Shown here one piece after another: positions 47,498 to 53,213 of a stretch of 64,000 nucleotides of DNA. Below the pieces are notes generated by a model. It searched no databases and was not told where the DNA came from. It saw only the letters and a program-made list of their open reading frames with translations. The stretch is from Clostridia bacterium (lineage in GTDB: Bacteria > Bacillota > Clostridia > TANB77 > CAG-508). The DNA is taken from positions 2,198 to 66,197 of the forward strand of contig JAAWKD010000005.1 in the NCBI GenBank assembly GCA_022797215.1, in the 5' to 3' direction. Within the stretch, counting starts at the first letter, position 1, and every line of letters starts with the position of its first letter. The translations under genes and the position numbers were made by a program.

Positions 47498-49270
47498 TTA
47501 TTCCCTCCTTAAAATATTTCTTTTAAGTATTACATATCTTATTTTAGTTGTAGCACAGCTACACATTCCACGTGGCTCACACATAGGCTGTAGATAGTTT
47601 TTGTTTACCTCGTATGAGGACTGTTGATTTTTATCTTCTTTTTCATCCTCTTTGCATTTAATTTCGTTTCCAGATTTTAGGATAAAAGTTATGACTCTTG
47701 GATTTGTTTTTTCGTTTTCTTCTTTTTCTCCTATTATAACTTTTTCTATCATCAATTCAAAAACATCTTTATCAAATTCTGGCATAATTTCATTATCTTT
47801 AAACAATGTTTTAAACTTGTTTAATCCTTGATTTAAACTAATTGAATCTTCCAACTCTAGTTGTAAATGCTCTTGTTCTTTCTCTATGCTATTTATTTTG
47901 TTTTGTAGCTTAGCTCTCTTTTCTTGCAGAGTTTCTAATGTTATTGTTCCATTTAAGTTCAAATCAATTAATTTGTCTATCTTTTCTTTTAAAATTTGTT
48001 TTTCTTCCTCTAGTCTTTTAATAGAACTTTCGTTACTTTCTTCTTGTATGATTTCTTCCATTTCGTTTAAGAATGTTTGGATTATTTGTTTATTGTTATT
48101 ACATAGTAGTCTGTAACTTTCTGTAAATGCTTCTTCTATAATGCTTTCTTTCATAGCTTTACAATGTGGGCAATTTTCTTTTCCATGTTTTACAAATTCC
48201 ATACAATGCCAAACTGTTATACTATTTTTAGTTCCTGAGTGCCAATTTCTTCTTGTTAATAAGCTTCCACAGAAAACACAATATAGTCTGCTACTAAAAG
48301 GATATTTTCTACTAAAGTTACCTTTTCTTCTTCCAGAGCCTCGTACTCCTCCTCTTTTTTGTAAAATTTCTTGTGCTTGATTAAACATTCTTTCAGAAAT
48401 AATTGGCTCATGATGTTCTTGTATGTAGTATTGATTTTCTTCTCCCATATTTACTACTCTTCTATGTGAAATTGGATCTGTTGTATATGTTTTTCCTTGT
48501 AAGACATCTCCTTTGTATTTTTCGTTTTTCAAAATACCTCTTATTGTTGATTCGTGCCATTTCTTTTTGCCTGTAGGAGTTTTATATTTCATATTTGTTA
48601 GTTCTTTTGCAATTGTTGTACAACCTACTCCTTGACAATATCTTTCAAAGATATATCTTACTATTTCTGCTTCTTCATAATTGATTGATATTTCTTTTGT
48701 ATCTTTATCATATACATATCCTAAACAACCATTATATCCAATTAGTTCCCCTCTTTTTTGTTTCATCTGCAAGCCTAATTTTACATGTGAAGAAATATTT
48801 TCGCTTTCTTGTTGTGCCATTGCACTTAATACTGTTAGCATTATTTCCCCTGATATTTCTAAAGTATTAATTCTTTCTTCTTCAAAATAAATAGCAATTC
48901 CTTTTTCTTTTAGTCCTCTTACATATTTTAAGGTATCAACTGTGTTTCTTCCAAATCTTGATATTGATTTTGTAATTATCATATCAAATTTGCCCATTGT
49001 TGCATCTTGCATCATTTTCATAAAGCCATCTCTTTTATAGTCTAGTGTTCCTGTTATTCCTTCATCTGCATAAATGCCAACATATTTCCAATCACTATTC
49101 GCTTTTATTTTTTCTTCATAATACTTTAGTTGAGAATTATAACTGTTTATTTGTTCTTCCTTTTCAGTACTTACTCTTGCATAGGCACATACTCTTAAAT
49201 TTCCTTTTATTTCTTCTCCTGTTGTTCTATTAATTCGACCTTTTTTCCTCTCTATAACTTGTACTTTCAA
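47498..49270 (-). CDS. large serine recombinase (integrase)
   Basis: Resolvase catalytic domain (YARVSTEKEEQ ... nucleophile Ser), recombinase domain, zinc ribbon (CVFCGS...C), C-terminal coiled coil. 590 aa. Confidence 0.9.
   Translation of the reverse strand: MKVQVIERKKGRINRTTGEEIKGNLRVCAYARVSTEKEEQINSYNSQLKYYEEKIKANSDWKYVGIYADEGITGTLDYKRDGFMKMMQDATMGKFDMIITKSISRFGRNTVDTLKYVRGLKEKGIAIYFEEERINTLEISGEIMLTVLSAMAQQESENISSHVKLGLQMKQKRGELIGYNGCLGYVYDKDTKEISINYEEAEIVRYIFERYCQGVGCTTIAKELTNMKYKTPTGKKKWHESTIRGILKNEKYKGDVLQGKTYTTDPISHRRVVNMGEENQYYIQEHHEPIISERMFNQAQEILQKRGGVRGSGRRKGNFSRKYPFSSRLYCVFCGSLLTRRNWHSGTKNSITVWHCMEFVKHGKENCPHCKAMKESIIEEAFTESYRLLCNNNKQIIQTFLNEMEEIIQEESNESSIKRLEEEKQILKEKIDKLIDLNLNGTITLETLQEKRAKLQNKINSIEKEQEHLQLELEDSISLNQGLNKFKTLFKDNEIMPEFDKDVFELMIEKVIIGEKEENEKTNPRVITFILKSGNEIKCKEDEKEDKNQQSSYEVNKNYLQPMCEPRGMCSCATTKIRYVILKRNILRRE
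47535..47587. repeat. 53-bp repeat copy A (candidate attachment site) containing the dyad TGTAGC-ACA-GCTACA
   Basis: 50/53 identity with 53161..53213. Overlaps the last codons of the recombinase gene. Confidence 0.6.
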
Positions 49271-49337
49271 ATTTACCCTTCCTTTCTCAAGTTTAGAGAA
49301 TCTTTATGTGCTTATTATACATCAAAAGTTTAATTTT

Positions 49338-49523
49338 TCAAATACCTATGTGAGTTAAATTATATTCTTGCAAGATATTTTGCTTTAATTCTAAATATCT
49401 CTTTTCTTTAATTAACCCTGCTTTAAATGTTTTATTTAGTATTGCTATTTTTATACTGCAATTAAAAATATTTTCATTTAGTTTGATGTTTTTTGTATTA
49501 TCAAAATTGACTTCATATAACAT
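49338..49523 (-). CDS. small hypothetical protein (61 aa) upstream of the recombinase
   Basis: ORF only. Its position directly 5' of the integrase is compatible with an RDF/excisionase-type small protein, but there is no sequence support. Confidence 0.3.
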   Translation of the reverse strand: MLYEVNFDNTKNIKLNENIFNCSIKIAILNKTFKAGLIKEKRYLELKQNILQEYNLTHIGI

Positions 49524-49711
49524 AAAAATTCTCCTCCTTGAATAGTTTAGATTTCAAAAAAGGCAACAGAAAAAGCCAGTCGTGCTAGCTTCGACTGACT
49601 TGATTGTTTTACATTTTTTGATAATACGATTATATTATGATGTTCTATAAAGTTCAATTCCCGTTTTTTTCCCTTTTTTCTGTTAAAATGATAAAGTCTT
49701 GATTTTTAGGT

Positions 49712-50002
49712 AAGTACACTAAGTGTACTTGTATAAAATTTTTTTAAATTTATTTTTATAATCCTTATTTGTGAGTTCACTTAGTGTACTTTTTACTAAT
49801 TTTTTGAAATCTTTAGTTCACTTGGTGTACTTTATTTTAATTTTAGTAATTTTTAGTTCACTCAGTGTACTTTTCCTTTTAACTTTAACAAAATTCAAGT
49901 ACACTTGGTGAACTAATCTCTGTATTTTTATAAAATTTAGTACATTTAGTGAACTTTCACACTCTACTAGGCATTTTTTAGCGGTTCATTTGGTGAATTT
50001 TT
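49712..50002. repeat. array of seven 17-bp palindromic iterons, AGT(A/T)CAC-N3-GTG(A/T)ACT
   Basis: AGTACACTAAGTGTACT (49715-49731, perfect 8-1-8 palindrome), AGTTCACTTAGTGTACT (~49775), AGTTCACTTGGTGTACT (~49815), AGTTCACTCAGTGTACT (~49855), AGTACACTTGGTGAACT (~49898), AGTACATTTAGTGAACT (~49939), GGTTCATTTGGTGAATT (~49984). They sit about 40 bp apart, and the half-site type switches from GTTCAC..GTGTAC to GTACAC..GTGAAC. Confidence 0.8.
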
Positions 50003-50075
50003 ACATCATATTTGCTTAAAATTTTTGTTCTTTTATTAACTCTTGAAGGCTTGTCCTTCGATGTGTGTAGGCGAT

Positions 50076-50097
50076 GTTTGAACACTCGCTTTCCTGC
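50076..50097. terminator. hairpin terminator
   Basis: GCCCTCAATTTTAATTGAGGGC, a perfect 9-bp stem just downstream of the gene at 50161..51021. Confidence 0.55.
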
Positions 50098-51699: not shown

Positions 51700-51727
51700 A
51701 TTATTCCACCTCTTATTTTCTCTAGCA

Positions 51728-52552
51728 TTAATTAATAATTATACTTTCAAAAAATCTTTCTTGAAACTCTGTCAATACTCTAATTTCATCATTTGTATAT
51801 TTTTTATCTTTTGGTACTAAAATTAATTTATCATCATTATCATTTAATCTATGTATTATCGCTATACATTCTCCAGTAAAACTTTCTATTGGTTCAAAAA
51901 CTCCTAAAACATAGCAATCTAGTTCTTCTCTATCTCCACTTATTGTATTTGGTATATATCCATAATTAATAGGATATATAAATCCATATTCTGGATGCTT
52001 TGAACCCATTTGCCTATCAATTTTTGCTGTAATTATTTTCCCTATGTATGAGTTTATATCAATTTTGTTTATATCTTTTAAATATAAAGTATATTCACAA
52101 GAATCAAATTCATCTCCATGTCCTTTATCTATTGCATTCGTAAATCCTAGTTTAAAATATATATGCTTTGCTATTTTATTGTCATCTTCTACACCTATTG
52201 TAAATTCTATATATCCTATATTAGTTAAATAATCTATGCAATAATTTATTAATTTTTGTCCTAAATCTCGTCCTTGATATTTTTTATCTACTCTAAATGC
52301 TTCTAAATATACTCTTTTATTTGGTATTGTTTCTGTTTCTAATTGATGGCTTTTATAATTGACAGTTAATTCTCCAATAATATCTTTGTTATCTTCAATC
52401 ACAAATACATCTATTTCTTGTTTTTGAAATTGTTGTAATCTCTTATTTTTATACTTAAGCCACATTTCTTCATTATCTGGAAACAACTTTTTTAATTTTT
52501 CAAATTCTTCTATTTTTATTTTTTTTAATTCCATTATTTCTCCAATCTTCAC
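51728..52552 (-). CDS. GNAT N-acetyltransferase fused to a family-I inorganic pyrophosphatase-like domain
   Basis: GNAT motif A (VDKKYQGRDLGQKLINY) in the N-terminal half. C-terminal YPINYGYIPNTISGDREELDCYVLG resembles the PPase signature YPHNYGFIPQT..DGDP.DVLVL. Confidence 0.55.
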   Translation of the reverse strand: MKIGEIMELKKIKIEEFEKLKKLFPDNEEMWLKYKNKRLQQFQKQEIDVFVIEDNKDIIGELTVNYKSHQLETETIPNKRVYLEAFRVDKKYQGRDLGQKLINYCIDYLTNIGYIEFTIGVEDDNKIAKHIYFKLGFTNAIDKGHGDEFDSCEYTLYLKDINKIDINSYIGKIITAKIDRQMGSKHPEYGFIYPINYGYIPNTISGDREELDCYVLGVFEPIESFTGECIAIIHRLNDNDDKLILVPKDKKYTNDEIRVLTEFQERFFESIIIN

Positions 52553-52654
52553 TATATCTAGTAATTCACTTTATTTATATCACAAATTAACATTTTTTCA
52601 TAGTGTTTTGCTAATATTTACAAAACATATTTATCCTTACATTTGCTTAATTGC

Positions 52655-52735
52655 ACACAAAATCTCCAATAGAAATAATGTCAAGAGCGAACAAAGTGAG
52701 TTTATTTTACTCTTGATATTATTTCTATTGGAGAT
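52655..52735. repeat. long hairpin: 25-bp inverted repeat (1 mismatch) with a 27-nt loop
   Basis: tctccaatagaaataatgtcaagag ... ctcttgatattatttctattggaga, inside a ~600-bp non-coding stretch between the 5.7-kb module and the prophage lysogeny region. Confidence 0.6.
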
Positions 52736-53160
52736 TAAAATTGGTATGCAAATGTATGACACGGATTTTTTTGAATTTTCGTGATATAAAAATTCATAGC
52801 ACGAATTTCCTCAATTTTTCGTTCTATAAAAAATAAGCATCAGCACATATCTACTGACACCCATTTAATAAAGATTCTCTATAACTCATTTTAATAAATT
52901 CTTTCTAACACTTGAAATACTTAACTTTTCTTTGTATCTACTTACCAGTACAACCTATACCTGTTATGCCTACCATAGACACAATCGTAACTTATCTAGT
53001 ATTTCAAACACTTTGCTCAATTTTCCAAAAATTAATTTATGTGTTTCCACTTACCACCTAAGCAACTACTTTAACTTTCACACCCAAATTTTGATGTTTT
53101 TCTTTCCCAAATCTGCCTTTCTCCTCAAAAGTTATAATCTCTGAAACTATATCAAAATCA

Positions 53161-53213
53161 AGTATTACATATCTTATTTTAGTTGTAGCACTGCTACACA
53201 CTCCACGTGACTT
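53161..53213. repeat. 53-bp repeat copy B (candidate attachment site) with the dyad TGTAGC-ACT-GCTACA
   Basis: Direct repeat of 47535..47587. The mismatches include the central base of the dyad. Confidence 0.6.

Follow-up and report, generated by a model that had tools for sequence, protein, structure and literature searches.

The locus analysed here is a 64,000-nucleotide (nt) stretch of Clostridia bacterium contig JAAWKD010000005.1 (the window), with about 28% GC and nearly all of its genes on the minus strand. Two long direct repeats enclose a serine recombinase gene where a prophage ends, and the question they raise is whether they are the attachment (att) junctions of a small element, parts of the prophage, or the sites of a deletion system. 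We consider it likely that the 5,635-bp segment that they delimit, termed E1, is a small integrative island of the class in which a large serine recombinase (LSR) targets the 3' end of rumA. This supports the suggestion of a preliminary description of this DNA that a small serine-recombinase integrative element lies at the prophage end, with the repeats as its two att junctions. That description missed both the target gene and the recombinase open reading frame (ORF) that would be rebuilt on excision.

A 53-nt sequence is present twice in direct orientation, at 47525-47577 (copy A) and 53160-53212 (copy B), 5,635 bp from start to start. The copies are identical at 50 of 53 positions and differ at repeat positions 33 (A/T), 42 (T/C) and 51 (G/A), the three mismatches quoted in the preliminary description. 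The pair itself was thus confirmed, whereas its positions were not: copy A had been placed at 47535-47587, 10 nt too far to the right, and copy B was 1 nt off. A degenerate 31-nt core pattern with up to three mismatches matches exactly two sites in the 64 kb and none in 100 dinucleotide-preserving shuffles, and a relaxed 28-mer search with up to six mismatches found no third copy in the window. As had been noted, the repeat contains a TGTAGC-ACW-GCTACA dyad, and copy A overlaps the 3' end of the recombinase gene, a 590-aa ORF on the minus strand (47498-49270). The recombinase 3' region lies to the right of copy A, and chromosomal DNA or an older remnant (X) to its left; copy A would be the recombinase-proximal, and copy B the rumA-proximal, att junction of the island. 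Independent metagenome contigs match the interior and both edges of the segment at 99.6-99.9% identity. Among them, L018 spans 52097 to 47527 and L019 spans 53268 to 49435, across copy B. L005 and L006 cover the left flank and end inside copy A, as short-read (k-mer) graphs do at repeats. Samples SRR32965975/6 and ERZ14651018 contain this island too.

The core of the repeat, GTAGCACNGCTACACANTCCACGTG, was scanned in one genome per species and in a metagenome collection, which revealed 15 loci. In eight of these (L003, L004, L007, L011, L012, L013, L016 and L017), the core forms the last codons (…HVECVAVLQLK…, then the stop) of an intact 450-470-aa rumA/rlmCD-type gene with TRAM and tRNA_U5-meth_tr domains. 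An LSR gene with 52-59% identity to that of the window comes after the core in L001, L002 and L008, in the same orientation as at copy A. L017 and L008 form an empty and occupied pair, the former reading X8–core–rumA and the latter the same X8–core–LSR. Within the window, copy A reads in one frame as a rumA-like ...HVECVAVLQLK with its stop and in another as the recombinase C-terminus PRGMCSCATTKIRYVIL. Copy B together with the next nine nt (53213-53221) reads FTSHVECVAVLQLK followed by a stop, which corresponds to the severed last 14 codons of rumA. From the eight loci with an intact gene, we identify the repeat as the 3' end of a rumA-type 23S rRNA m5U-methyltransferase gene, so that the att core would be rumA 3'-terminal coding sequence, as in known rumA elements. 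The 14-codon remnant suggests that the body of rumA lies beyond the right end of the window, past the prophage. The window contains no tRNA or tmRNA gene and hence no tRNA-type att site.

The other reading frame of the repeat was analysed with a set of 120 close LSR homologues, 55-96% identical to the recombinase of the window (86-92% for the top 40). The homologues share their sequence as far as …NYLQxxxEP[CR]G and diverge beyond this point, which is exactly the start of the core. Short forms (563-591 aa) end at the core or just after it, and long forms (615-633 aa) bear one of three tails, …VILDFDIVSEIITFEEKGRFGKEKHQNLGVKVKVVA, …VVLEFTSFQDTIMFHKRGRFGLEKVQNNEIHVKVVLDMECGNI or …TIVEFTAFEDFISFEKKGKNKIKRVENHKIKVTIEVDLVCGVV, which are homologous to each other at the protein level. 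The first tail is found on the minus strand of 53207-53061, in the recombinase frame through the core. This detached 3' piece of the recombinase gene (53058-53207, minus strand, ending in …RGVCSSATTKIRYVILDFDIVSEIITFEEKGRFGKEKHQNLGVKVKVVA and a stop) would be in frame with the recombinase only after recombination between copies A and B. Joining the left side of copy B to the right side of copy A indeed yields a 615-aa ORF with the tail as in P0003 and P0052. The class 2 and class 3 tails, used as tblastn queries, match the window significantly only at 53043-53207 (E values of 1.5e-7 and 3e-4), and the two examples of class 3 DNA have no open frame in common other than that of the tail. As in described rumA elements, the att site falls within the integrase ORF and the C-terminus is exchanged. 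A variant is seen in L051-L053, where a stop at the core leaves a 563-aa recombinase and a 54-aa ORF follows immediately after the stop. By position this small ORF would correspond to the tail, which may be dispensable there, or these copies may be decaying.

The tail lies at the right end of a conserved, non-coding-looking block, termed F (52573-53159, given as 640 nt), whose left boundary at about 52573 is sharp in many loci. Copies of block F from different loci are 80-91% identical, compared with only 62-72% for the rumA genes next to them, and the identity drops abruptly at the core, which a mobile end would be expected to show. Being more conserved than the adjoining rumA, F thus travels with the element. 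A complete sibling of about 4.5 kb, in L033 and L034, has the order rumA–core–tail3–230aa–CYTH–61aa–LSR–core–tail1/F–chromosome. Each element there has its own tail at its rumA-proximal end, and the F block at the opposite end is what remains of an earlier element. Taken together, the tail analysis, the conservation of F and the L033 sibling place attP inside the recombinase ORF and make F the far end of the island.

The L033 sibling also narrows down the crossover. Its two junctions share only agCCATGTGGAGTGT (ACACTCCACATGGct in the orientation of the window), and both sides differ by origin; L017 and L008 agree up to …CACGTGCC. From these junctions, the exchange would occur within ACACTCCAC(G/A)TGG or, in its longer form, ACACTCCAC(G/A)TGGCT, and the crossover maps to ACACTCCACGTGG, probably at GA. 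The TGTAGC-ACW-GCTACA dyad lies wholly inside one half-site and the exchange interval 10-20 nt to its right, so that the crossover is not at the dyad highlighted in the preliminary description. The GA that belongs to the Glu codon of HVE falls in this interval. The predicted dinucleotide, TC on the plus strand and GA on the coding strand, is at 47567-47568 in copy A and 53202-53203 in copy B; we infer it from these junctions and in part from the GA target published for rumA. The direct repeats that flank E1 would thus contain the crossover dinucleotide, as those of rumA elements do. With this crossover, mismatches 33 and 42 would belong to the downstream or F side and mismatch 51 to the recombinase or rumA side.

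In the mechanism that we propose, the circular form of the island would have its attP within the recombinase gene, in the 3' portion (…rec–core–tail–F…), and the recombinase would exchange strands at the dinucleotide, probably the GA of the Glu codon in HVE. Integration would yield rumA–core–tail/F–cargo–61aa–rec–core–downstream DNA. The integrated rumA would keep a nearly identical C-terminus supplied by the element, and the recombinase would lose its last ~33 codons, passing from 615 aa to 590 aa; recombination between copies A and B would reverse this. The siphovirus would have entered the same rumA, later or independently, about 10 nt upstream, leaving copy B between the end of the prophage and the island.

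The prophage (53217-64000, minus strand), of which the window includes only late genes, is indeed separate from the island and inserted in rumA about 10 nt upstream of its crossover. The same phage, at 98-100% identity, ends at 53216/53217 in five other contigs (L054, L055, L059, L060 and L061) with different left-hand neighbours. In four of these (L054, L055, L059 and L061) it abuts F–core, and the cargo to the left of F in L054 is quite different. Read in the rumA frame (FT[ST]HVECVAVLQLK…), the many changes that these four contigs carry in the ~25 nt around the core are either synonymous or conservative (Ser/Thr). In L060 (2540-2640) the neighbour of the phage is instead a second, divergent rumA-like 3' end (FTAHIECVLVLTLK…; FTAHIECVLVLTLKSANN…), and neither F nor E1 DNA lies beside the junction. 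This indicates that the phage attaches at more than one rumA allele or paralogue. DNA of the phage proper always begins with gtaaattagac (53217), and a shared TTTAC is found about 10 nt upstream of the island's GA. The constant boundary and the offset TTTAC argue that the phage has its own rumA specificity and cut rumA 14 codons before the stop; the severed end, copy B and nine nt more, already formed part of the junction of the island.

These phage junctions bear on the alternative of the preliminary description, in which the recombinase is the integrase of the prophage, copy A its attL, and copy B an internal pseudo-site or relic within a single element. The recombinase does lie downstream of the lysis module on the same strand, and the 10.8 kb of prophage in the window shows no other integrase. 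The five contigs refute this alternative, since the phage boundary is at 53216/53217 in all of them, with other cargo in L054 and neither F nor E1 in L060; in independent occurrences the repeats do not coincide with the phage boundaries. Moreover, members of the LSR clade sit in phage-free islands of about 4-10 kb, and no close homologue was found in 2.9 million viral contigs, where the best match is 45% identical. We regard this reading as highly improbable. It is also very unlikely that F and copy B are a native chromosomal attB downstream of rumA, next to which the recombinase and cargo would be unrelated DNA with a second partial site. The arrangements F–core–rumA, found in five loci, and F–core–LSR, found in two, would by themselves resemble empty and occupied sites, and we tried the former as empty sites with a chromosomal F. 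This was rejected on the identity discontinuity between F and the far less conserved rumA genes, on the conserved recombinase tail that F encodes in frame, and on L033, where the sibling has its own tail at the rumA end and F at the opposite one. A resolvase-type deletion, with the repeats as res-like sites and not integrase att sites, was suggested by the long identity of the direct repeats and would agree with an N-terminal domain of the Resolvase family. It is, in our view, extremely improbable and unnecessary: the enzyme is a 590-aa LSR with Recombinase and zinc-ribbon domains and not a resolvase of ~200 aa (resolvases and invertases have ~180-210 aa), models of small resolvases and invertases match weakly and in the N-terminal domain only, and homologues sit at true junctions between chromosome and element. 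The length of the identical repeat follows from its being the rumA 3' end carried in attP, with attP inside the recombinase ORF.

Several observations weigh against an island that moves as proposed. Neither an empty site (X–core–rumA) nor a circular junction at 99% identity or more to this element was found, and a terminal-overlap test detected no circular forms among short contigs. The body of rumA is absent from the window. In copy B, on the rumA side of the crossover, phage DNA starts after only ~15 nt of rumA-like sequence, which may impair excision. The tail is removed by a stop at or before the core in L001, L002 and L051-L053 and may be dispensable in some relatives. Within tail class 1, synonymous and nonsynonymous changes show no clear preference (119/165 in the recombinase frame and 128/117 in one antisense frame), and this ambiguity leaves the coding argument to the comparison between classes. 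In L018, from sample SRR32965975, an otherwise 99.9%-identical recombinase is split by a 1-nt indel into ORFs of 325 aa and 225 aa, which is either a natural pseudogene or an assembly error. The island might thus be a fixed relic that entered as proposed and no longer excises, with the repeats as historical scars, because copy B lost its rumA-side half-site to the prophage, because the 590-aa recombinase lacks its tail, or both. The proximity of phage DNA to the predicted crossover of copy B, the missing junctions and the frameshifted recombinase of the other sample would agree with this, and the prophage form of the Myxococcus phage Mx8 integrase is less active, as cited in PMC4701971. Yet the window has an intact recombinase ORF with an intact catalytic motif, two intact cores and an intact detached tail ORF, and near-identical backbones with differing cargo point to recent turnover. 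We therefore hold a fixed relic to be possible and rather unlikely, and retain as the preferred reading an island that inserted as proposed and may still be mobile.

In the direction of the recombinase, from right to left, E1 comprises copy B, F, three cargo genes, a hairpin and leader, an array of dyads, a 61-aa ORF, the LSR gene and copy A. A single LSR at one end is the arrangement of rumA elements. The recombinase contains the Resolvase (PF00239, E 8e-33), Recombinase (PF07508, E 7e-28) and Zn_ribbon_recom (PF13408, E 1e-8) domains with the catalytic motif AYARVSTEKEEQ. Its gene directly abuts copy A, and the last ~25 codons cross copy A into flank X. The 61-aa ORF (49338-49523, minus strand) has no known domain, lies immediately upstream of the recombinase in every family member, and is a candidate regulator or directionality factor. 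Between it and the cargo operon are six 15-bp dyads of the type GTACAC-N3-GTGAAC (49714-49954), mostly 40-43 bp apart with a last gap of 61 bp, of which siblings L029, L033 and L035 have two to five copies. This array is probably the operator region for a dimeric regulator. A conserved non-coding leader (49981-50131), accompanied by a terminator-like hairpin, marks the inner end of the family backbone, beyond which the cargo varies.

The cargo operon (50161-52552, minus strand) encodes a 286-aa protein that weakly matches Mrr_N/wHTH (50161-51021), a 204-aa S-adenosylmethionine (SAM) methyltransferase (51085-51699) and a 274-aa GNAT-pyrophosphatase fusion (51728-52552). PADLOC returned only a match of the methyltransferase domain to mad2 and marginal matches. 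No relaxase, coupling protein or type IV secretion system (T4SS) gene was matched by Pfam, NCBIfam or PADLOC among the five ORFs of 47578-53159. E1 thus carries no conjugation or mobilisation genes and is neither an integrative and conjugative element (ICE) nor a callable integrative and mobilisable element (IME), although it might have an unrecognised origin of transfer. Exact-protein look-ups of the recombinase, the 274-aa GNAT protein and the amidase of the prophage gave no record, and that of a 268-aa GNAT protein gave one short contig. Small-enzyme and ABC-transporter genes lie to the left of copy A.

Block F contains a hairpin with a 27-bp stem (52661-52736) that is conserved in all F copies. 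In L011, changes on both arms keep the pairing, and the imperfect positions are G-T on the plus strand, which hints at a structured RNA or a single-stranded DNA feature. Rfam gave nothing at gathering thresholds over 40000-64000. Over 49300-53400 only sub-threshold matches were seen, namely chance matches of the F hairpin (microRNA precursor model, 31 bits vs 101) and one match to a plastid 3' untranslated region model at 53267-53319 (30.7 bits).

The backbone of F, core, LSR, 61-aa ORF (~85-90% identity), dyad array and leader is shared by a family of sibling islands in which the cargo varies. It consists of an LmuB-type Lamassu system with AbiEi/AbiEii in L029-L032, of Hachiman HamA with a helicase and PemK in L051-L053, of a DUF1016/YhcG nuclease in L035 and of CYTH in L033. 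No relaxase or transfer genes were found in the islands of this family. From this cargo, the rumA hot spot appears to be a site of defence-gene exchange in gut Clostridia. In L029 and L051-L052, the span of about 10 kb from rumA to the LSR gene also has a degenerate core and an F remnant (L029 at about 1100-1125; L051/L052 at 0-5300), together with runs of small hydrolase genes (NUDIX, HD, His_Phos, Ser_hydrolase) that resemble 37000-47500 of the window. This suggests that the whole region may be built of layers of decayed accretions or islands.

The prophage genes in the window encode a helix-turn-helix (HTH) protein, a MutS-domain-I ORF, an amidase endolysin, a holin-like protein, a diversity-generating retroelement (DGR) with reverse transcriptase, and Gp37-like, Dit and tape-measure proteins. 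The 72-aa HTH protein at the phage end was found in 22 contigs. At this end (53980-54574), an HTH_26 gene overlaps an ORF with MutS domain I only (151 aa by the ORF listing, 127 aa as called elsewhere). The pair is kept in all phage copies, and a stand-alone mismatch-binding domain is unusual for a moron. The DGR (56866-59681) comprises the reverse transcriptase gene (56866-57990, minus strand), a 95-nt template repeat (58139-58233) and an 84%-identical variable repeat (58851-58945) at the 3' end of a DUF6273 tail-fibre-like gene (58839-59681). The differences between these repeats are mostly T to C on the plus strand, that is, adenine-specific on the coding strand. In phage databases, megablast gave one weak match for 46500-54600 and none for 53213-64000, and tblastn with the Gp37-like tail protein found only relatives of at most 33% identity. 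Scans of viral contigs for the core and the phage-side flank found nothing, and two related viral contigs retrieved with the endolysin (L036 and L037) end near the lysin and carry no att information.

The exact boundaries of two nested mobile elements should aid annotation, as rumA is split and the recombinase ORF as called is a truncated form. The island also extends a hot spot known mostly from large streptococcal ICEs to very small, cargo-only islands of gut Clostridia, whose siblings carry recognised anti-phage systems. LSR/att pairs with defined sites are useful as genome-engineering parts, and the detachable tail offers a handle on how the directionality or activity of an LSR is tied to its integration state. 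As a speculation that may well prove wrong, the conserved tail of ~33-45 aa, common to three classes of att specificity and encoded beyond attP, on its far side, might be a functional mini-domain. Its loss on integration and its return on excision would then toggle the recombinase between two forms, one competent for integration and one quiescent or biased towards excision. Such a switch would be the LSR counterpart of IntP/IntX of phage Mx8 in widespread transfer-gene-free cassettes of ~4.5-10 kb, which insert in tandem at rumA and carry defence genes (Lamassu, AbiE, Hachiman) from one of the gut Clostridia to another.

Among known systems, E1 functionally resembles the staphylococcal cassette chromosome (SCC) elements, including SCCmec. 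These are cargo-only cassettes without transfer genes that are mobilised by LSRs, CcrAB or CcrC, in the 3' end of an rRNA methyltransferase gene, orfX/rlmH, of staphylococci. They are flanked by direct repeats containing the target gene's end and form tandem composites. E1 differs by its rumA target in place of rlmH, by the att site inside the recombinase ORF and by its much smaller size. CcrB and CcrC are the best NCBIfam matches of the recombinase (E ~1e-38), with scores so far below the cut-offs of the Ccr families (131.6 bits vs 900 for CcrB) that it is not a Ccr.

E1 is also like streptococcal ICEs integrated at rumA by a single serine integrase, which have flanking direct repeats of 2-21 bp, with one copy within rumA and the other within the integrase gene, and in which the 3' parts of the two genes are reciprocally exchanged (PMC4701971, Ambroset et al. 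2016). IMEs at rumA have also been catalogued, and site-specific accretion has been described (PMC5704250, Guedon et al. 2017). E1 shares with elements such as ICE_Spy2096_rumA, ICESp2905 and IME_SpnAP200_rumA the single LSR at one end, the target at the rumA 3' end, the att site in the integrase gene and the flanking direct repeats, a likeness of features. Unlike these elements of 10-100 kb with conjugation or mobilisation modules, it has 5.6 kb, no relaxase, coupling protein or T4SS gene, a repeat of 53 bp, beyond the published range, and a Clostridium-like host of ~28% GC. The vanG elements and ICE-r, found in rumA of S. agalactiae, S. anginosus, E. faecalis and Roseburia, target a GA in the codon about 11 from the stop, form fusions and occur in tandem as vanG plus ICE-r (PMC4120198, Srinivasan et al. 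2014). E1 resembles them in the GA target predicted for it, the end recombinase fused to rumA 3' codons, the tandem stacking and an element end that mimics the RumA C-terminus. Their fusions are reported to be in-frame translational ones, whereas the E1 recombinase uses another frame for the rumA 3' segment and then continues, in its restored form, into a conserved tail of ~33 aa; the tandem partner here is a prophage with a slightly different crossover.

In Myxococcus phage Mx8, as cited in PMC4701971, attP lies within the integrase gene and integration replaces the integrase C-terminus, which makes the enzyme of the prophage unlike that of the excised phage (IntP/IntX). The Mx8 integrase is a tyrosine recombinase in which 112 residues are replaced, compared with ~33 residues of an LSR in E1. 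The same source cites C. difficile CTn5, a Tn1549-family ICE that reinserted in rumA CD3393 as its primary site. Compared by description only, CTn5 is, like E1, a clostridial serine-integrase element at rumA, and is large and conjugative. E1 thus joins an already described class, as publications exist on LSR elements that target rumA, on att sites within an integrase gene and on stacking in tandem, and it differs from the published cases by its very small size, its 53-bp repeat, its conserved detachable tail and a prophage as tandem partner.

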